Below are positions 21,538 through 41,675 of a stretch of 64,000 nt of DNA, piece after piece. A model generated the notes under the pieces. It searched no databases, was not told the origin of the DNA, and saw nothing but the letters and a program-made list of their open reading frames with translations. The stretch's first letter is position 1; every line of letters starts with the position of its first letter. A program made the position numbers and the translations under genes. The DNA is from Fimbriimonadales bacterium. GTDB lineage: Bacteria; Armatimonadota; Fimbriimonadia; Fimbriimonadales; JABRVX01. Location: assembly GCA_045862955.1 (NCBI GenBank), contig BTVI01000012.1:18453-82452 (forward strand), read 5' to 3'.

Positions 21538-22939
21538 GGCCATCTACGAGAAGGCGCTGGAGATGGGACTCGACCCATTTCCGGTGCACTTCGAGGTGGT
21601 ACCGGATCATGTCATCTATGAGCTGGGGGCCTACGGGCTCCCGGCTCGATTCTCACACTGGACCTTCGGGCGGGACTACCACCGCATGAAGACCAGTTAC
21701 GAGTACAACCTGACACGCATTTACGAGATCATCTTCAACACCGATCCCTCGCAGGCCTTCCTGTTAGACAGCAACTCGATGCTGAGCCATAAGCTGGTTG
21801 CAGCTCACTGTTACGGACACAGCGACTTCTTCAAGAACAACACCTACTTCCAGCACACGGACCGCAGCATGATCGAGCGGGCCCGCCTTCACGCCGAGCG
21901 GATTCGTAAGTATCAGATGGAGCACGGCCCGGAGGTCGTAGAGCGTTTCCTCGATGCCGCTATGAGTATTCAGGAGCATCTGGACCCGGCAAAGATGTCG
22001 CGGCCTACTACCGAGCCTTCCTCGCAACCGAAGGAGAGTGAACCCCCTCCCCGGGGCCCCTATGACGACATCTGGTACGTTGTCGAGGAGAAGCCAGCGC
22101 CTCCGCCTCGCGAGCAGCGGTTCCCGCCGGAACCCGAGAAGGACCTACTCCTGTTCCTGCGCGACTACGCCCGCGATCTCGAGCCGTGGCAGCGAGACTG
22201 CCTAGAGATTCTTCGCGACGAGATGCTGTACTTCTTGCCCCAGATGCGAACCAAGATCATGAACGAAGGATGGGCCTCATACTGGCACGAGAAAATCCTG
22301 GAATCCTTGCCACTCTCATCGGAAGAGCATCTGGAGTTTCGTCGCATGCATAGTGCCGTGCTATCTCCCGGTGGCAGCGTGCACCTCAACCCATACTACG
22401 TGGGCTACCAGCTCTTCAAGGACATCGAGAGACGATGGAACGGCGAACCCGACCCCGATGGCGAGCCAGAGGAAGACTGGCTGGGTGACATTATCCAGCG
22501 GCCGACCGGGCAAGGGCGTGAGAGAATATTCCGGGCACGCCTGGAGGACGATGATCAGAGCTTCCTGGGCAAGTACCTAACTGCCGGACTGTGCAAGCGC
22601 ATGGACCTTTTCACCTATAAGATGGAAGAGGTCAACGGCGAGATGGTGTGGGTGGTGCAAGAGACCGATTGGCGCAAGGTGCGAGATGCGCTGGTAGCGC
22701 AGATGACGAACCTCGGCGCCCCGTATGTGACGGTGGAGGATGGCGACTTCGAGCACCGCGGTGAGCTGCTGCTGCGACACCACTACGACGGTCGTCCTCT
22801 CGACTTCGACTACACGGCGCGTACCCTGCGCAACATCACCTACATCTGGGGCCGACCGGTCCACATCGATACCGTGTCTAACGATGAACCGGTACGCATC
22901 TCCTGCGACGGAGAGAACATCACTCAGACTGGGACGTAG
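21497..22939 (+). CDS. spoVR: SpoVR/YcgB family protein
   Basis: AYGLPARFSHWTFG, AHCYGHSDFFKNN, PQMRTKIMNEGWASYWH, NPYYVG. Confidence 0.95.
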   Translation: MTQAEREELNRWLEAIYEKALEMGLDPFPVHFEVVPDHVIYELGAYGLPARFSHWTFGRDYHRMKTSYEYNLTRIYEIIFNTDPSQAFLLDSNSMLSHKLVAAHCYGHSDFFKNNTYFQHTDRSMIERARLHAERIRKYQMEHGPEVVERFLDAAMSIQEHLDPAKMSRPTTEPSSQPKESEPPPRGPYDDIWYVVEEKPAPPPREQRFPPEPEKDLLLFLRDYARDLEPWQRDCLEILRDEMLYFLPQMRTKIMNEGWASYWHEKILESLPLSSEEHLEFRRMHSAVLSPGGSVHLNPYYVGYQLFKDIERRWNGEPDPDGEPEEDWLGDIIQRPTGQGRERIFRARLEDDDQSFLGKYLTAGLCKRMDLFTYKMEEVNGEMVWVVQETDWRKVRDALVAQMTNLGAPYVTVEDGDFEHRGELLLRHHYDGRPLDFDYTARTLRNITYIWGRPVHIDTVSNDEPVRISCDGENITQTGT

Positions 22940-23039
22940 CACGTATGCTGCTGGCCAGGCGAGTCTATCGCGTGGCTTCATGCCCTGGCCCGCGCCCTGG
23001 TCGGCAACTACCCTCCCACCCGCGACGAGGCCAGGGACC

Positions 23040-23730
23040 GCGCCGGGGCATGGAAAAGCGGGCTGGGGCATGGAGACGTTTCGGCATAGAATCTCCCTCC
23101 CTCTCCCCCGTTCGCGGGGGAGAGGGTTGGGGTGAGGGGGGCATCACCAGCCGCTGGAGTCGGGTGCCTCGACGTTCGGCTGCTCAAAGAGTCGCTGGGA
23201 GAGTAGCTTGGCGGCAGACGGCAGCCGAAACGTCTAGGCATGGGAAAGCGGGCCGGGGCATAGAGACGTCTCGGCATAAAAACGTCTAGGCATGGAAACG
23301 TCATGCTGAGCTTGTCGAAGCATGCCCTCGCCTGCCGCATGGTAGTACCGGGAGTCCGTCATGCTGAGCTTGTCGAAGCATGCGCTGGAGCGCCGCCACC
23401 TAACACCTCTTCGCACTATGCCACAGCCGAAACCTTCAGACATCTTCTGTCCGGGGAGTACGCTGACACCGCGCCGTCGAGGCATGCCCCGGCGCGGTCC
23501 TTGGGTTCGCGCTGTTCGTCTGGTGGATGCAGAGCGACGGACGCGGGCCGGGGCATGGAGACGCCTCGGCATAAAATCTCCCTCCCTCTCCCCCGTTTGC
23601 GGGGGAGAGGGTTGGGGTGAGGGGGCATCACCAGCCGCTGGAGTCGGGTGCCTCGACGTTCGGCTGCTCGAAGAGTCGCTGGGAGAGTAGCTTGGCAGCA
23701 GACGGCAGCCGAAACGTCGAGGCATGGAAA
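23040..23730 (+). repeat. Mosaic repeat region: a duplicated ~190-nt unit plus two GTCATGCTGAGCTTGTCGAAGCATG repeats
   Basis: Near-identical units at ~23058-23247 and ~23543-23730 contain a CCCTCTCCCCCG..CGGGGGAGAGGG hairpin; the 25-mers lie at 23300 and 23358. Confidence 0.88.
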
Positions 23731-24077
23731 CACCTTCATCGGGGTTCATTGCGTATGCCCTACCCGGCTGAACGGCTACGACGAGCCACGCAGAGTCCGA
23801 CGTCGGCGTCTCGGTTCAGGTGTTGTGGCGGAGCGGGCAGCCGGTCACGCTGATGCAGTTGGTGGACCCGCGCACGATGCTCCTGGGCAGGGGCAAGGTG
23901 CTTCGGAACCACAACACCCCGCCCGTGGGTGGGTGCCGAACCTCGGTAGAGATCGCCCTGGATGGACCCGCCGACACGCGAGAGAAGGGCTTCCATCAGC
24001 CCTTCATCTGTGGCGACCACGTCCGCGACTTTCAAGCTTACGGTCAGATGTACGACATAGCAACCGAGCCCATCTAG
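23729..24077 (+). pseudogene. C-terminal remnant of an L-fucose-isomerase-like protein
   Basis: NTFIGVHCVCPTRLNGYDEP, then a frame change to HAESDVGVSVQVLWR...GGCRT...GFHQ...GDH; no N-terminus, truncated at the repeats. Confidence 0.6.
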
Positions 24078-28805: not shown

Positions 28806-28930
28806 GTTGGGCGCGATAACGCAATCCTGTGGTTGCTAGCTCGCTAAGCCGGCGTTATAATGATTGCGGGACACCCTGGCGATCCGAATCCCCATTCGCC
28901 GGCATTCGACCGTGTCCCAAGGAGAGTGGC

Positions 28931-30043
28931 ATGAACCGAGCGATCATCTTTGCGCTTCTCGGATGCCTGGCCCAGTCGGCGAGTGCCGTCAACGTGGGCA
29001 TTTTCGACAACTCCCGCCTCTTGGGCACGTCCTGGAACATCGCGACCGCCGGCCAGCTCTCGCAGTTTCGTGCAGAGTGGGAGAGCCGCGGCGCGGTCTG
29101 GCAACAGACCTCCGCGCTAACTCCCACTTTTCTCGAGGGCGTCCAGGTGTTCGTCACCAGCAAGATCAGCACGCAGACCCTCGGCTCCGCCGAGAAGACC
29201 GCGCTGGTGAACTGGGTTCAGGCGGGCGGCACGCTGGTCGTGACGGCCGAGTGCAACTGCTACAACAATCAGACGGCTTACAACAGCATGTTGGCCCTAT
29301 TCGGCTTCGTGCTCAGCGGCACGATTCCGGAGGCTTATGGGAGCGTTGTCGCTTCGCACCCCATTACGCAGGGGTTGAGTTCGCCGTATATCGGCCAGAA
29401 CGGGTATCTCGTTCTTCCCGACGGGGCTCAACGGCTGATCGTGGATCAAATGGGAAACGACTGCGCTGCAGTCCTAGAGGGTAGCCCGATCGTGGGTCTC
29501 GGGCGCGTGTTCGTAATCGGCGACTGCGACATGTTTATCGATTTCTTCCTCACGTTGGAAGAGCAGAATGTGAAGCTGGTAAGGAATCTTGCCAACTGGG
29601 CCATGAACCCCACGGTCAGGCTCACGGGAACGATATCCTTGGCAGACTACGTCGGCGTCATGACCGGCATGCCCGTTACGCTGGACGTGTACGAAGACGG
29701 TGTGTTGGTGTCCTCGCTCTTTACATGGATCGAGGACGAAGCCGGCACGTACACCTTCGAGCTGCCTGGAACAGGGACCTACACCTTGCGCTGCAAGGCC
29801 TGGCACTGGCTGAGCGTGCTGAGGACCGGCGTGACGATAACGGGCGCGACCACCATGAATTGGCACTTCCCGTACAACGGTGACGTGTGGAACGACAACA
29901 CGATTGACCTCGCGGACCTCAACATGGTGCTAGTTGACTTCGCGAAAAGCGGGTTCAACTTGGCCGATGCCAATGGCAACGACCTGGTGGACCTGCTCGA
30001 CCTCAATATCGTGCTGCTCAACTTCGCCCGCGTGGGTCAATAG
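28931..30043 (+). CDS. Secreted protein: class I GATase-like (DUF4350-like) domain + Ig-like domain + dockerin-like C-terminus; CxC motif
   Basis: Signal peptide; E..AL.NWVQAGGTLVVTAECNC, HPITQG, GRVFVIGD; paired GDVxNDNxID/DANGNDLVDLLDL repeats. Confidence 0.85.
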   Translation: MNRAIIFALLGCLAQSASAVNVGIFDNSRLLGTSWNIATAGQLSQFRAEWESRGAVWQQTSALTPTFLEGVQVFVTSKISTQTLGSAEKTALVNWVQAGGTLVVTAECNCYNNQTAYNSMLALFGFVLSGTIPEAYGSVVASHPITQGLSSPYIGQNGYLVLPDGAQRLIVDQMGNDCAAVLEGSPIVGLGRVFVIGDCDMFIDFFLTLEEQNVKLVRNLANWAMNPTVRLTGTISLADYVGVMTGMPVTLDVYEDGVLVSSLFTWIEDEAGTYTFELPGTGTYTLRCKAWHWLSVLRTGVTITGATTMNWHFPYNGDVWNDNTIDLADLNMVLVDFAKSGFNLADANGNDLVDLLDLNIVLLNFARVGQ

Positions 30044-30086: not shown

Positions 30087-30386
30087 GTATCACGATCGCA
30101 TCCCCACGTCCGCTTCCTCAGAGCGAGCGCATCACGGGAATGCGCGACCTGGGATTGCACTACGATGACCTATTTGCGTTCTCCGCGGATCTCTGCGAGC
30201 CCCGCGTGAGATCCCATCGTGGCAACGGGCCGCACCACAGAGGCGGCAGGGTATAGCCGGGGGGTTGTCGCGCGGAGATCGCAAAGAGCTCGCCGAGTTC
30301 GCAGTAGCGTGCCCAAGTGGTACGAGATATCTTCGATCGTCCTCGGCCCGTCACCAACTCCGCTCTAGAGGATGCGCGAGCGCGTA

Positions 30387-30435
30387 CTCCCTCCCCTTGG
30401 AACGCAGTGGAAGGGGGAGGGCCGGGGTGGGGGTC
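30387..30435 (+). repeat. REP-like palindrome
   Basis: CTCCCTCCCCTT...AAGGGGGAGGGCCGGGGTGGGGGTC has the same design as the CCCTCTCCCC..GGGGAGAGGGTTGGGGTGAGGGG units at 23100 and 23585. Confidence 0.6.
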
Positions 30436-30748
30436 AGGCTCGATGCCTCGACGTTTCTGCTGCTGAACATACCGAACCCTCCGCCGAGCACCGACCCGAG
30501 CAGCCGAGACGTCGAGGCTCTCATGCCCCACCCCTCTGCCGACGGCACGCCCACGGAGTGTGTGCCGAGGCATCATGCATCCGTCCCCCGCCAGCTCGCC
30601 CTCGCTATCCAGACATTCCTGCGTTATAATGTCCAAACCTACCGGCTAGTCGAGTGACCGGCTGTCGTAATGGGCAGCACCTACCCGATGAAGCGACCCG
30701 TAGCGAGCCGTCACATTGATTACGCGCCGGCGACAAGGAGAGAGGCCT

Positions 30749-31855
30749 ATGAAGCGCATCGCGGCTGCGTTGGCGCTATGCGTCGGCGGAGCCTCCTGGG
30801 CCGCGGACGTCGGCATCTTCGCCGACAGCCTGCTCATCAGCTACGTGTACAACATGGAAACCGGGTCGTACATGTCCGGCGTGCGTGCTCTTTGGGACGC
30901 GAGGGGCGTCACGTGGCGGCAGACCACGGTGCTGTCCGAGGAGTTCCTGAGCTCCGTTGACGTCTTGTACTTATCTCACTTCAAGGGCCCGTCGATCACC
31001 GGACCGGAGCAGGCCGCACTGTTCCAGTGGGTACGCGACGGCGGCACCCTGATCTTCTTCGGGGACTGCGGGTGAGGCATTGATCAGTCCGTACTGAACT
31101 CCGTTGTGGGCACGTTCGGTGTGAGTATCTGGAGTTCGACGACGTACGGCTGGGGTCAGGTCGTGACCCCGCACGCAATCAACCAAGGCGTTACGCGGAT
31201 GTATGTCCCGAAAAACGGAGTGGTCACCGCTCCGGCTTCCGCCGTCACCCTCTTCAACGATCCCTATAACACCAAAGACTGCATCGTGATGGAGCAGACC
31301 CTGGAAACGGGCAATGGGCGAGTGTTGGTATTCGGCGACTGGGACGGCTTCACGCAAACCTACTTCCCGAACTACGCCGAGAACCAGACGGTGGCCGCGA
31401 ACATCGCAGATTGGGCGCTCCGCACGGCCACGATCTCGGGCTACGTCCAGCTATCGGGATACGCCGGCTCGACTGCAGGCAAGCCCGTCCGGTTAGACCT
31501 CTATCGCGAAGGGCGCCTGGTCAAATCGGTGGCAACGGTGCTCGGGGCATCGGGCGAATACAGCGTGTCGGTATATCGCTCTGGCACGTACGACTTGGTG
31601 CTGAAGCCAGAGGGGTACCTCTCGGTGAAGCAAGTGGGCATCCCGCTGACATACGGCTACAACACGGTGGACTGGCAGGTGCCATACATCGGCGACGTCA
31701 ACGGGGACAACGCCGTGGACATCCGCGACGTGAACCCTATCCTGATCCACTTCGGAGCTCCGGGCCCACACCCGTGCGACGTGAACGGGGACGGTACGGT
31801 CGGGGTGGACGACATGGCCGCGGCTCTCGTGAACTTCGGCCGTTTCGGGCAGTAG
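30749..31855 (+). CDS. Secreted paralog of 28931-30043 with one in-frame TGA (31073-31075): candidate selenoprotein (CxU), alternatively a nonsense pseudogene
   Basis: ORFs 30716-31075 and 31106-31855 share a frame with no other stop. Read-through gives 368 aa versus 370 aa for the paralog. GGTLIFFGDCG* aligns to GGTLVVTAECNC. Confidence 0.75.
31090..31123 (+). promoter_or_regulatory. Candidate bacterial SECIS hairpin
   Basis: CGTACTGAAC/GTTCGGTGTG lower stem, TCC/GGG upper stem and a GTTGT apical loop starting 27 nt after the TGA (folded by eye). Confidence 0.45.
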
Positions 31856-31872: not shown

Positions 31873-31903
31873 AGCCCCCCGAACCTAGGCTCGGGGGGCT
31901 TTC
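31873..31903 (+). terminator. Rho-independent terminator
   Basis: AGCCCCCCGA...TCGGGGGGCT followed by TTCATT. Confidence 0.65.
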
Positions 31904-32888: not shown

Positions 32889-32978
32889 TGCATGCCTCCA
32901 TCCGCCTTCGGATGGAGGCTCGGGACCCTTGGTACTTCCTGCATGCCTCCATCCGCCCTCGGATGGAGGCTCGGGTCC
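32889..32978 (+). repeat. Two REP palindromes flanking the RAYT 3' end
   Basis: GCATGCCTCCATCCGCC(T/C)TCGGATGGAGGCTCGGG x2. Confidence 0.9.
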
Positions 32979-33005
32979 CTTCCTGTACTTCAGCAGAGGG
33001 GAAGT

Positions 33006-33605
33006 TCAGGGCATCACACTTACACTGCCGCCCTTTATCACCAGCAACTCAGGCGAGCAATAGTAGCGGACGAGTTCAGGGTCGAGATGCAGACCCCGCT
33101 CCTCGGACCAGACACCCTGATCGTAGAGAAAAGCACTGGACCACCGATACTCGCTCTGCAAAGCTACGAGCCCTGCGCGAACGGGGTTGTTGTGGATGTA
33201 GTCGGCCTTCTGCCGAAACAGCGAGTCTCGGTTGATGGGGAACGAGCGATAGCTCCTGTCCCACAAGACTCGCTCATTGCTCCCCGACTGCCTACCAAGC
33301 TCCTCCAGGACCTCTGCGGACAGCGCGCTGAGCAGCCTCTTGGCTGCATTGGATTTCAGCCGAGCCATGAGCCAGGCGATGGACCGTCCCGTCGGCACTC
33401 GAAGAATGGCGTGCCAGTGCGACGATAGCACGACGTAGGCGTCCAGGATTGCCCCATAGTGTAGGCAGTCATGAATCAGGCTGGCAGTCATGATGTCGCG
33501 TGCTATGGTGGTACGAAGCGCGTGCACGCGATTCAGGCACGTGCTGGTGACGAACGTGCATGCGCCTTCTGGCCCCCAATTCCTGTAGTGGTGATCGCAG
33601 GGCAT
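33006..33605 (-). mobile_element. REP-associated tyrosine transposase (RAYT, IS200-like Y1 HUH)
   Basis: FVTSTC, AYVVLSSHWH (HUH), LKS..A, LWDRSY, YIHNNPVRAGLV...YRWSSA; REP arrays on both sides. Confidence 0.9.
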
Positions 33606-33699
33606 CCCAAGGTCGTTCTCTGGTTGTCCGATGGCTTCCTGTCCAACTACTGAAACTGCCTCGGCCGTGGGTAGGACCCTCCCCTCCTTACAGCTCTCC

Positions 33700-34655
33700 A
33701 TCTCTCCACCCGAGGGCGGGTGGAGAGATGGGATGATCGCGGGTGGAGAGATGGCAGCCCCTGCATGCCTCCATCCGCCCTCGGATGGAGGCTCGGGACC
33801 CTTGGTACTTCCTGCATGCCTCCATCCGCCTTCGGATGGAGGCTTCGTGCTACCAGGTAGGAGATGCCGACCTGCGCGACCGTGCATGACCAGACCGCGC
33901 CCCCTCTCCACCCGAGGGCGGGTGGAGAGATGGCAGCCCCTGCATGCCTCCATCCGCCGTCGGCTGGAGGCTTCGTGCTACCAGGTAGGAGATGCCAACC
34001 TGCGCGAACGTGCATGACCAGACCGCGTTTCCTCTCCACCCGAGGACGGGTGGAGAGATGGGGGTTTCCCCATGCCTCCATCCGCCTTCGGATGGAGGCT
34101 TCGCGCTCTCTGGTGGGGAGATGCCAACCTGCGCGAGCGTGCATGACCAGACCCCGTTTCCTCTCCACCCGAGGGCGGGTGGAGAGATGGCGGTTTCCCC
34201 ATGCCTCCATCCGCCCTCGGATGGAGGCTTCGTGCTCTCTGGTGGGGAGATGCCAACCTGCGCGAGCGTGCATGACCGGACCCCGTTTCCTCTCCACCCG
34301 AGGGCGGGTGGAGAGATGGGAAGCGTGCATGACCAGACCCCGTTTCCTCTCCACCCGAGGGCGGGTGGAGAGGTGGGATGCGTGCATGACCAGACCGCGT
34401 TTCCTCTCCACCCGAGGGCGGGTGGAGAGATGGGATGCATGACCGACCGATTCCTCTCCACCCGAGGGCGGGTGGAGAGATGGGATGCATGACCACACCG
34501 ATTCCTCTCCACCCGAGGGCGGGTGGAGAGATGGGATGAGCGTCCTGCCAGACCGCGCCCCCTCTCCACCCGAGGGCGGGTGGAGAGATGGGATGAGCGT
34601 GCATGACCAGGCCGCGCCCTCTCTCCACCCGAGGGCGGGTGGAGAGATGGGACAA
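33700..34655 (+). repeat. REP/BIME array with two palindrome types
   Basis: About 11 copies of CTCTCCACCCGAGGGCGGGTGGAGAG interleaved with 5 copies of GCCTCCATCCGCCYTCGGATGGAGGC. Confidence 0.93.
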
Positions 34656-34674
34656 GCATCCATAAGTGGCGCCC

Positions 34675-38309: not shown

Positions 38310-39293
38310 GTGCTGCTTCCCAGTCCGATCTACACACTTCTGCTTCAGCGTGGTGCCCGTCTGCAGGGCATGGAGATCACCGACTTCGGCGATCCCGTCC
38401 GCGAGTACGAGGCAATGGACAAGGCCGCCGGCCTCGTGGACCGTTCCTACCTAACGAAACTGCGCATCGCTGGCTCCGACGCCGCCGAGTGGCTTCAGGG
38501 CCAAGTGAGCAACGATGTAACCAAGCTGCAGCCGGAAGGAAGGCTCTCTTGTCTCGTCTGCACGCCAACCGGGCAGATCGTCGCGGACTGCTCGGTGTGG
38601 CGCGTGCAGGACCACTTCGTGATGCTTGCGCCCGGCTCACAGCGAACAGCCTTGATCGAGCGTCTCCAGCGGATGCTCGTCTCAGAGGACGTGCGCATCG
38701 AGGACGTCACCGAGCGCTATGCCCTGCTCTCTTTGATCGGACCCCATGTTAGCAAGGAGTGGTCCGAAGGCCACCCCTTCGGACCGACGAACGCGGTTCG
38801 TGGGAACGGCCTGGACGTGCTGGTCGCCAACGAAGGCGAGCAGGATTTCCTGGCGTCGCTGGTGGAGCGGGCGGCTCCCGTCGGGACCATTGCCTATCAC
38901 GTGCGGCGCATCGAGGACGGCGTCCCGCTGTATGGCGTCGAAATGGATGCCCGCACGCTGCCCCAAGAGATGGGTGCCGATTTCGAGCGCGACCACATCT
39001 CGTATACCAAGGGGTGCTACACGGGGCAAGAGGTGGTTGCACGCATCCACTCGCGAGGCCACACCAATCGGCAGTTGTGCGGCGTTCGCTGGGAGGCCGA
39101 TGTGCCGGTTGGGGCACGGGTGTTCGCGGGTAATGCCGAGGTAGGGATCGTTACCAGCACCTGCCGCTCCTTCGCGCTAGGCGTGCCCATCTCGCTGGCC
39201 GTGTCGAGGCGCGAGGCGGCAGAGCCGGGCACGAAGGTGCGAGCCGAAGGGGTCGAGGGCGAGGTCTGCGAGCTGCCCTTCGTGCGCAGATGA
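38310..39293 (+). CDS. ygfZ: Folate-binding YgfZ/GcvT family protein
   Basis: G.DA..WLQGQ.SND, RIEDGVP..G.E, ISYTKGCYTGQEVVAR. Confidence 0.9.
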   Translation: MLLPSPIYTLLLQRGARLQGMEITDFGDPVREYEAMDKAAGLVDRSYLTKLRIAGSDAAEWLQGQVSNDVTKLQPEGRLSCLVCTPTGQIVADCSVWRVQDHFVMLAPGSQRTALIERLQRMLVSEDVRIEDVTERYALLSLIGPHVSKEWSEGHPFGPTNAVRGNGLDVLVANEGEQDFLASLVERAAPVGTIAYHVRRIEDGVPLYGVEMDARTLPQEMGADFERDHISYTKGCYTGQEVVARIHSRGHTNRQLCGVRWEADVPVGARVFAGNAEVGIVTSTCRSFALGVPISLAVSRREAAEPGTKVRAEGVEGEVCELPFVRR

Positions 39294-40282
39294 GAGATAA
39301 CCTGGGCCCGGGTTGGCGGCGGGACTTCGCGATCCTGTGCCTGATGAACGTTTGCTGGGCGCCGGTGTTCTTCTTCCTGAAAGACCTGCGCGCGGTGATG
39401 TCGGACACCGGGGTCGGGCTGGCCCGCTTCGGTTATGCGGCGTCGTTCTTCTGGCTCGTGGTGTGGTCGCCTCGGCTCCGCCAGATGCTGCACATCCGGA
39501 TGCCGGTTAGCTGGGGCGAGCGCATTGGGAGCATGGTGATCGGTGCCGCGTTGGTCGCACCCGCGCACCTGATGTACTTTTGGGGTCTGAGCACCTCACT
39601 GGGCACCGAGGCGACGCTGCTCGGCGCGTCCGGTCCGATCATTCTGGCGCTGGCCGGAGCGGCGTTTCTCAGCGAGCGGCTGACGCTAGGCCAGTGGATC
39701 GGCGTCTTCCTCGGCTTCGTGGGCGTGTACGGTGTGGTGACGGGCAAGTGGGCGTGGATCGAGCTCGGGAGCACCAATCGGAGCGGCAATCTACTGGTGC
39801 TGAGTGGTTTCGTGCTGGAGACGACCGGTACGCTTCTCGCAAAGCCGCTAGTACGTCGCTCCTCTGGCCTCGGCTACACGGTCTGGTCGTTCACGGGAAA
39901 CGCGCTGGTGTTCGTGGGCCTCACCATTCTGTGGAACCGTCCCATGTTCACCGCGATGCCGGAAGCGTCGGACGTGCTGAAGCTTTTGTACTTGGCGGTG
40001 TTCTCTGCGAGCATTCTGTGGGCGGCGTGGTTCTGGGTAATGGAACGCCTTCCCGTCGGGCTGATGGGAGTGTCCCTCTATTGTCAGCAGATTGCCGCGG
40101 CGCTGCTGGGGTACCTGGTGTATTCCGATCGGCTTGCGGCAGCGGCCTGGCAGGGCGGTCTGCTGATCCTATTCAGCATCTGGCTCTGCACACGGAAGAG
40201 CGGTGCTCGGCGGGAGCCCGCGCGTGAGGCGGCTCGAGGTGATCGCGACGGTTCCTCTGCCACAATGGGGACGCGGCGCTAA
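39290..40282 (+). CDS. EamA/DMT family transporter
   Basis: About 10 TM helices in two EamA repeats; FLSERLT..QWIG. Confidence 0.85.
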   Translation: MRDNLGPGWRRDFAILCLMNVCWAPVFFFLKDLRAVMSDTGVGLARFGYAASFFWLVVWSPRLRQMLHIRMPVSWGERIGSMVIGAALVAPAHLMYFWGLSTSLGTEATLLGASGPIILALAGAAFLSERLTLGQWIGVFLGFVGVYGVVTGKWAWIELGSTNRSGNLLVLSGFVLETTGTLLAKPLVRRSSGLGYTVWSFTGNALVFVGLTILWNRPMFTAMPEASDVLKLLYLAVFSASILWAAWFWVMERLPVGLMGVSLYCQQIAAALLGYLVYSDRLAAAAWQGGLLILFSIWLCTRKSGARREPAREAARGDRDGSSATMGTRR

Positions 40283-40362
40283 GATTGACTTTGCCCGGGA
40301 GCGCTTGGCCCGACGCCCGTGGCTGCCGTGAACGACAGAGTGCCTTTAGTGGGAGAGTGAGA

Positions 40363-40719
40363 ATGCAAGGGAAACTGGGAGCCGTAATGCTGTACGCAGA
40401 GGATCACGTAGGGTTAGCTACGTGGTACCACGAGGTTCTTGGCTTGCCACCGGCCAAGCAATACGAGGAGACGCACCTAGGCTGCGTGCATGAAGACATG
40501 TACTTCGGGTTCAACCGGCACACTCCGCAGCCGGTCCCTGGGGCCGTGTCCCTGTGGTTCATCGTAAACGATTGCGACTCGGAGTTCGCTGCGGTCGAGG
40601 GCAGAGGCGGCGTGCCGTTACACGAACCGCACGATACGTCCTGGGGTGCACGCGTCTGTTGCTTCTCGGACCCCGCGGGCAACCGCGTGTGGCTATACAC
40701 CTATCTACCGAAGGAGTAG
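40363..40719 (+). CDS. VOC/glyoxalase family protein
   Basis: WYHEVLGL, EP.DTSWGAR...F.DPAGN. Confidence 0.85.
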   Translation: MQGKLGAVMLYAEDHVGLATWYHEVLGLPPAKQYEETHLGCVHEDMYFGFNRHTPQPVPGAVSLWFIVNDCDSEFAAVEGRGGVPLHEPHDTSWGARVCCFSDPAGNRVWLYTYLPKE

Positions 40720-40724
40720 ACGCA

Positions 40725-41675
40725 ACGGACGCTCGCGAGTTCTCGGCACGACGAGAGGCCGATTGGAAGAGGCTCTCCGAGCTATTGGATCGGGTGCGCT
40801 CCGGCAGGCGAGCCTCCATGACTCATGACGAATTGCGCGAGCTGCAGACGTTGTATCGCCGCGTCGGCAGCGACCTGGCTTACGCCCAGAGCAACATCAG
40901 CAACGAGCGGGTGATCGACTACCTCAACGACCTCGTGGCGCGAGGCCACGCGCTGATTTACGCTCCTGAACGAAAGAGCCCTGCGGCCGTGCTTCGGGAG
41001 TTGGCCCATGCGGCGCCACTCGCCCTTCGCCGGAGGATGGGCTACGTCGGCGTGGCAGCGCTGATCACCGCGCTGGGTGCAGGAGTTGGTGCGCTTGCCC
41101 AGAGTGTGGACTCGTCGTGGATGGACGCGATGGTGCCGGGGGAGCTTAGGCAGTCCATAGAGATCTGGCAGACCGGGCAGTTCCCCGAGGCGACAGGCTC
41201 CGAGCAGTTCGGGTTCATGGCTGGCCTGAACCTGAACAATAGCTGGGTGGCTATTCTGATGCTCGCGTCGGGCCTTACATTCGGGTTGTTGACCACGTAT
41301 CTGCTGGCGATCAACGGCATGGTGCTGGGAGTGGTGATAGTAGAGGTTGGCCGGGTGGGGCAACTGGGGCACCTGCTTTCCGGGATCGCTGCGCATGGTG
41401 TTCCCGAGTTCGGGGCGATCCTGATTGCCGGCGGGGGAGGACTGGTGCTGGCCGATGCGCTGCTTCGGCCCGGTGAGCTCTCCCGCCCCGACGCCCTACG
41501 GAAGGCAGGCCCAGATTGCTTCTGGATGATCGCCTTCGCCCTCCTGTTGCTAGTGGTTGCGGCTATCTTGGAGGCGTACGTATCTCACTCGACGCTGCCT
41601 CGGGGCATGAAGGTGGGCATCGCCGGACTGCTTCTGGTGCTGCTGGCGGGTTTCGTGTACGGCGTCAGGCGGTAA
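40725..41675 (+). CDS. Stage II sporulation protein M (SpoIIM/DUF95) family membrane protein; start uncertain
   Basis: W.RL..L, LYR....DLA.A, YLN.LV.R.H..IY, NN..V, NG.VLG, HGVPE, LE.YVS. Confidence 0.85.
   Translation, partial: TDAREFSARREADWKRLSELLDRVRSGRRASMTHDELRELQTLYRRVGSDLAYAQSNISNERVIDYLNDLVARGHALIYAPERKSPAAVLRELAHAAPLALRRRMGYVGVAALITALGAGVGALAQSVDSSWMDAMVPGELRQSIEIWQTGQFPEATGSEQFGFMAGLNLNNSWVAILMLASGLTFGLLTTYLLAINGMVLGVVIVEVGRVGQLGHLLSGIAAHGVPEFGAILIAGGGGLVLADALLRPGELSRPDALRKAGPDCFWMIAFALLLLVVAAILEAYVSHSTLPRGMKVGIAGLLLVLLAGFVYGVRR

Follow-up and report, generated by a model that had tools for sequence, protein, structure and literature searches.

The window, a stretch of 64,000 nucleotides from a Fimbriimonadales genome (contig BTVI01000012.1), carries a gene split by an in-frame TGA that most probably encodes a real exported selenoprotein, displayed at the cell surface and with its UGA109 decoded by SelB and tRNA-Sec. 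Insertion of selenocysteine (Sec) at position 109 is itself very probable from the comparative evidence. The gene belongs to a well-supported candidate selenoprotein family which, judged by family descriptions and NCBIfam models, appears absent from the current catalogue, narrow in range and dependent on standard decoding.

Read-through of the TGA as U gave a protein of 368 aa with one recoded codon. The TGA was the sole break of the 368-codon frame, in agreement with the original prediction of a single split gene with no further lesion. The surrounding motif, FFGD-C107-G-U109 (D106-C107-G108-U109), aligned without a gap with TAE-C108-N-C110 in the 370-aa product of the neighbouring gene, and U109 thus stands where that protein has the latter Cys of its CxC, as had been proposed. 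The predicted colinearity of the two proteins was borne out from end to end, over 369 alignment columns at 35% identity. The ribosome-binding site and terminator announced for the gene were also found, with the qualification given for the terminator in Table 1.

Table 1. Features of the target gene and its Cys paralog, in window coordinates
Feature	Position	Strand	Basis
Predicted selenoprotein gene, 368 aa with U109	30749..31855	+	Read-through; same-TGA orthologue, 90% identity, in a second species (G001)
Shine-Dalgarno-like AAGGAG	30735..30740	+	Seen in sequence
Predicted signal peptide, aa 1-18, ending ASWA	30749..30802	+	Read by eye
GIFT/DUF4350 domain, aa 20-224, class I glutamine-amidotransferase-like fold	30806..31420	+	Pfam, 5fms, neighbour's Atlas model
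C107-G108-U109 motif, TGA at 31073-31075	31067..31075	+	Sequence, alignment
Candidate SECIS hairpin, apical loop GUUGUG 27 nt after UGA	31090..31123	+	Folding; silent-site over-conservation over the stretch
Ig-like / carboxypeptidase-regulatory-like domain, about aa 227-312	31427..31684	+	Weak PF13620 match, E 0.039; Atlas matches of neighbour's tail
Dockerin-like double Ca-loop tail, about aa 313-368	31685..31852	+	Atlas match of neighbour's tail; tail common to 73 ORFs
Intrinsic terminator-like hairpin	31873..31900	+	Computed; 2 such hairpins, chance expectation 1.5
Cys paralog, 370 aa, C108-N-C110 (codons 29252-29260)	28931..30043	+	Alignment; sigma70-like site 28833-28861

The bases of the TGA were corroborated by independent assemblies: contigs (not raw reads) of two runs from two other studies, X7 and X13, cover the codon and read TGA with no other letter, though 15 further positions deviate from the window. 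Holders of the window stretch were mostly sludge and bioreactor metagenome runs, and a relative of the Cys paralog with 91% identity was labelled 'Fimbriimonadia bacterium'. Two 151-nt contigs of an RNA run (X15) mapped downstream of the TGA, too little to demonstrate transcription. The genetic code is the standard one, since 431 of the 1186 long ORFs of the genome end in TGA and its tRNA-Trp anticodon is CCA. Between the two paralogs (30176-30437) lie short intergenic elements that match many other contigs and resemble dispersed repeats. Overlapping spurious ORFs elsewhere in the window arise from two blocks of long, imperfect repeats of tandem-like type (about 22900-23750 and 32900-34660); the latter block flanks an ORF (33006-33953) which we take to be transposase-like.

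Among 228 genomes of the class, full-length members were restricted to one family (f1), with five paralogs in each of three genomes: the one holding the window (G000), one of another species (G001) and one of another genus (G002). The aligned codon of these 15 paralogs was TGA in seven (three, three and one per genome, respectively) and Cys in six. The two others, both from G002, had neither Cys of the motif, which is therefore dispensable in some members. An acidic residue preceded the first Cys position in 15/15 members. The target shares 37-47% identity with the other two Sec paralogs of its own genome, and in G002 three members carrying CxU, no Cys and CxC follow one another in tandem (L022, L029 and L026, respectively; contig C2, 68473-71656). 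The possibility that the TGA was peculiar to one strain was thereby dismissed, the same codon being TGA also in a second species, in a second genus and on metagenome contigs. The metagenome scan yielded three close members among at least 56 loci, and the two contigs that cover the codon among the matches listed (L065 and L066) both read TGA.

Wider searches were in keeping with this narrow range. The class search matched 5/228 genomes at E<=1e-12 and the phylum search 91/301 at E<=0.001; the phylum matches outside G000 were weak and partial (best E 5e-15), and no internal stop occurred among those listed. A DNA pattern scan of GTDB returned seven loci, as pattern matches alone, three in one Fimbriimonadia genome and four in unrelated taxa. 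Thirteen database proteins end exactly at [DE]-C-x, one residue before the Sec position, as seen from protein ends and not from stop codons. They comprise all 7 short N-terminal matches among the best 150 of 2443 representatives of the wider domain family (E<=0.001), all 5 matches of a short-protein search and one cluster member; two are halves of genes that we read as DNA, six resemble the three Sec paralogs of the G000 genus and five represent further lineages at <50% identity. With U counted as C, the two motif columns held Cys in 19/21 and 18/21 clade rows, against about 0% and 2% of the other domain rows (n=228). The wider domain family also includes giants of 3000-7000 aa with up to eight repeats of the domain and no CxC (P0007, P0008, P0012, P0014 and others). 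With the motif masked, monophyly of the seven Sec genes was rejected (AU p=0.0025), a minimum of four changes being needed; either Sec is therefore of early origin within the family, or repeated gains and losses have occurred. Since no other stop codon can be reached from a Cys codon in one step, the recurrence of TGA in preference to other stops is no evidence by itself.

A further line of evidence was the selection acting after the TGA. Between G000 and G001, dN/dS downstream of the codon was 0.094, 0.104 and 0.102 for the three TGA pairs, compared with 0.078 and 0.105 for the Cys pairs (dS 0.6-0.96 across pairs). These ratios, the dN/dS check that the original prediction had named, indicate that the sequence after the TGA is under purifying selection, and a pseudogene is therefore disfavoured. 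Silent differences were also depleted in the 15 codons following the TGA (5/42 versus 331/848 elsewhere in those genes, p=1.5e-4; each of the three pairs being one between G000 and G001). The same test after the Cys codon gave 8/27 versus 205/556 (p=0.29).

The machinery for Sec insertion, which the prediction had named as a check, was present in full in G000 (97.6% complete, 63% GC). We detected selA (E 2e-133, contig C5), a single selB over cut-off (contig C40), one canonical-looking tRNA-Sec with a UCA anticodon (81 bits, standard threshold) and a selD with its own in-frame TGA (CAG-U-ASK). The tRNA-Sec gene lies just downstream of selD (contig C2, 120031-121151, minus strand), with selA and selB elsewhere. 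A second Rfam match for tRNA-Sec proved to be tRNA-Ser(CGA), and one ordinary tRNA-Cys was found; Rfam scoring covered 150 of 479 tRNA candidates, and a divergent second copy may remain among the others. G001 also possesses selA, selB, selC and selD. Searches of G002 (94% complete) recovered selA, selC and a TGA-containing selD and no selB over cut-off, which either counts against the Sec reading or reflects an assembly gap. More broadly, selA and selD occurred in 21/41 related genomes, with TGA in 20 of the 21 selD matches (a tally that includes G036). We considered whether the family explains the retention of Sec in the order and rejected this, because most of the genomes with selA and selD lack the family.

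The SECIS-like hairpin that had been invoked in support of recoding exists, at -11.8 kcal/mol, but its stability is that of shuffled sequences (z -0.8 to +0.8). It conforms to the bSECIS consensus published in PMC13188914, and the G001 orthologue of the target folds with a loop 32 nt after the UGA. A loose re-implementation of the bSECIS test (G in the first two loop positions, 16-37 nt after UGA, MFE <= -7.5) was passed by 5/8 TGA members, 1/6 Cys members and, in this 63%-GC genome, 222/300 ordinary in-frame Cys codons. Because these controls pass the same test, the hairpin on its own proves nothing. The Sec gene of G002 had no hairpin passing this loose test, and that of one Cys orthologue scored -12.1. 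We found no single SECIS common to the family, unlike the selD genes of the order, in which a clear stem recurs whose G-led loop lies 32-33 nt after UGA; the selD of G015, with Cys instead of TGA, lacks that stem. The best SECIS case in the family is the orthogroup of the Sec paralog on contig C28 (four sequences). Between its positions +7 and +47 only two columns vary, each in the loop of one of a tandem pair of hairpins; the latter loop (AGUUY, 37 nt after UGA) fits the bSECIS consensus. The SECIS is thus the weak link of the Sec reading, and the interpretation as a selenoprotein is upheld by conservation and not by the hairpin. According to PMC13326102, about 13% of BSepDB entries lack a canonical SECIS.

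A genome-wide scan placed the family at the head of the candidates in G000. The top four of its 68 read-through candidates adjacent to Cys were the three family genes and selD. Twenty further candidates, picked by hand out of 16,601 scored, yielded no pairing of Sec with Cys: in 12 of them Pfam domains flanked the TGA on one side or both, as at ordinary gene ends, and eight had no Pfam match, two of them looking broken. Other Sec-prone families gave no TGA in 15 AhpC-TSA and three molybdopterin matches, and Rdx gave no match. Three of the four selenoproteins found in G000 by this non-exhaustive search are members of the family. Two related repeat proteins carry in-frame TGAs not next to Cys, L143 (contig C24, 9631-10185, minus strand; TGA followed at 18 nt by a strong hairpin) and L145 (contig C22, 13607-14434, plus strand; two TGAs), and both are probably broken genes. 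In both G000 and G001 a Sec paralog (contig C28 of G000, about 38600-40765; L027) lies directly downstream of trxB on the same strand, which is a weak hint to function because the two genomes are syntenic. Inspection of the three G000 paralogs gave no other neighbourhood clue beyond trxB.

As for architecture, the GATase-like domain originally proposed was right as to the broad fold and could be narrowed specifically to GIFT/DUF4350. DUF4350 was detected in 14/15 members and IFT52_GIFT in 11/15 (E<=0.01; best member E 4e-12), the window proteins themselves scoring 17-28 bits, below the curated cut-off of 30.4. The best PDB match was IFT52N (5fms, E 6e-8), and the neighbour's Atlas model superposed on DUF4350/GIFT clusters with TM 0.81-0.87 over about 200 residues, a comparison between predicted models. 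In combination these matches show, as far as predicted models can, that aa 20-224 adopt the GIFT/DUF4350 fold. By the conserved GATase motifs, G105 would occupy the elbow position and be closely followed by C107 and U109; a comparison with 11 GATase domains by hhalign returned a probability of 0.3% and no usable alignment for placing U109 relative to the elbow. IFT52N has an amidotransferase fold without catalytic residues, GIFT domains being described as non-catalytic in PMC4818760, and archaeal DUF4350 proteins are extracellular according to PMC5898192.

At the N-terminus, C11 of the target is S in the orthologue and is therefore not part of a lipobox. The C-terminal tail of the neighbour had an Atlas top match of 0.96 to a cluster in which 60% of members carry Dockerin_1. 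The NF041540 dockerin model reached one member at E 0.015, below its cut-off, and the Pfam scan gave no match to the PF00404 dockerin. The same tail is found on 73 ORFs of G000 from many contigs (for example at C12:71189), and is C-terminal in 72 of them. Such recurrence suggests a general surface anchor, putatively lineage-wide.

We propose that UGA109 would be translated as selenocysteine by the SelB and tRNA-Sec of the genome, aided by an RNA element within the ~45 nt that follow. The protein would then be exported by its predicted signal peptide and displayed through the Ig spacer and dockerin-like tail, a tail that may be put on about 70 secreted proteins of the lineage. The [DE]-C-x-U/C motif would have been added onto an otherwise Cys-free GIFT/DUF4350 scaffold. 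The site could cycle between selenol/thiol and a C-x-U selenenylsulfide and so reduce oxidants or disulfides at the cell surface, the selenol attacking the oxidant or disulfide and C107 resolving; Cys paralogs would be slower, selenium-independent isoforms. If Sec is inserted, we give such a surface thiol/selenol redox site an even chance of being correct. We favour it over a soft-metal site and over a structural or nucleophilic role of the motif, a preference that draws on general knowledge of CxC and CxU motifs and on statements in PMC13188914.

The main alternative given Sec, a soft-metal site, is possible though doubtful. As an account of the whole gene it holds that the [DE]-C-x-U motif of a selenoprotein captures or sequesters Hg, Cu, Ag or As at the surface without redox catalysis, and we judge that account somewhat unlikely. 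The acidic residue before the Cys in every member, the sludge and bioreactor origin of the holders, and the non-catalytic character ascribed to GIFT domains in PMC4818760 are all compatible with it. So is the suggestion, in PMC13188914, that Sec may be a metal ligand in the exported or transport selenoproteins SaoB, SaoX and SaoC. Against this, the genes are monocistronic, and no metal-resistance or transporter genes were found by eye beside the three G000 paralogs or in the ORF list of the window.

Three explanations dispense with Sec altogether. Reading of the UGA as Cys by SelC*/tRNA-ReC has a precedent in the phylum, tRNA-ReC-like genes being reported, in PMC13582414, in 5/5 Armatimonadota genomes with UXXU hydrogenases. 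We consider it very improbable here in view of the one canonical-looking UCA tRNA beside selD, the one tRNA-Cys and the one selB, within the 150/479 candidates scored by Rfam. A nonsense mutation, pseudogene or assembly error would require a single step from TGC or TGT to TGA, and broken-looking genes with in-frame TGAs do exist in G000 (L143, L145). Yet the same codon recurs in three paralogs and in two more genomes, no second lesion has accumulated, dN/dS stays at about 0.1 downstream at dS 0.6-0.9, and independent runs read TGA, all of which leaves this explanation with hardly any probability. We find just as little to recommend a deliberate split into a secreted N-half of 108 aa and a C-half with a start of its own (GTG 31106). 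Each half is annotated as a gene by gene callers, but the interruption lies within a single fold, the C-half lacks a signal peptide, and its called starts vary between members (218-251 aa). The selenoprotein reading is thus the one that we retain.

A fuller scenario, offered tentatively, is that a new surface selenoenzyme evolved in one small Fimbriimonadia family, where CxU arose on a non-catalytic GIFT scaffold and the gene expanded to give isoforms with Sec, with Cys or without the motif, in a surface array anchored by dockerins. This family, and not formate dehydrogenase or peroxiredoxins, would be the main use of Sec in G000, with a non-canonical, paralog-specific SECIS. If the selenoprotein reading is true, selenium chemistry may take place outside the cell in sludge bacteria, and a Cys/Sec site would have arisen on a scaffold described as non-enzymatic. 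The Sec, Cys and motif-less paralogs would form a natural series for studying the contribution of selenium outside the cell. Diversity among the downstream elements may also help to define non-canonical bacterial SECIS classes, such as those implied by the 13% of BSepDB entries mentioned above (PMC13326102).

The original prediction that the protein falls outside known selenoprotein families stood up to comparison. The window proteins matched no model of NCBIfam (June 2026). Compared by description, DUF4350, GIFT and dockerin are named in no entry of the 119-family selenoprotein table of PMC13188914. The family would extend the selenoproteins to a fold for which the catalogue has no Sec protein. 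A literature search found no work on the family among the papers listed, judged by titles and the openings of abstracts; the family may be on record under another name. The family is invisible to current catalogues because annotation presents each member as a hypothetical protein split in two.

Among known systems, the CxU selenoproteins described in PMC13188914 (UshA-like NF041198, rhodanese form 3 NF041203, ferredoxin-thioredoxin reductase NF041072 and Trx-like Sec.1) resemble the present family in their UGA/Cys pairing, CxU motif and SelABCD-encoding genomes. They differ in fold and architecture, and neither the window proteins nor the scanned members match any of their NCBIfam models (E<=0.1). 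The nearest entry is the CTP synthase C-terminal-related selenoprotein NF004836, which belongs to the same broad class I GATase-like superfamily (PMC13188914 and PMC12013277). Its motif is GxUxG, whereas the family has [DE]CxU (DCGU in the target), no NF004836 match, and a signal peptide and dockerin-like tail. The GIFT/DUF4350 proteins (IFT52N, GldG, arCOG01314) are alike in fold, in weak sequence match and in the extracellular location of prokaryotic members (PMC5898192); in contrast, the known members are described as non-catalytic interaction domains (PMC4818760), and they lack CxC or CxU. Exported selenoproteins as such are already catalogued. SaoB, SaoX, ExtKL and a TonB-dependent receptor with FCYXU carry Sec in proteins that probably work outside the cytoplasm. 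Those proteins are parts of transporters or cytochromes, whereas the family described here is stand-alone and dockerin-tagged and, unlike them, combines Sec, Cys and motif-less isoforms in a multi-paralog set.
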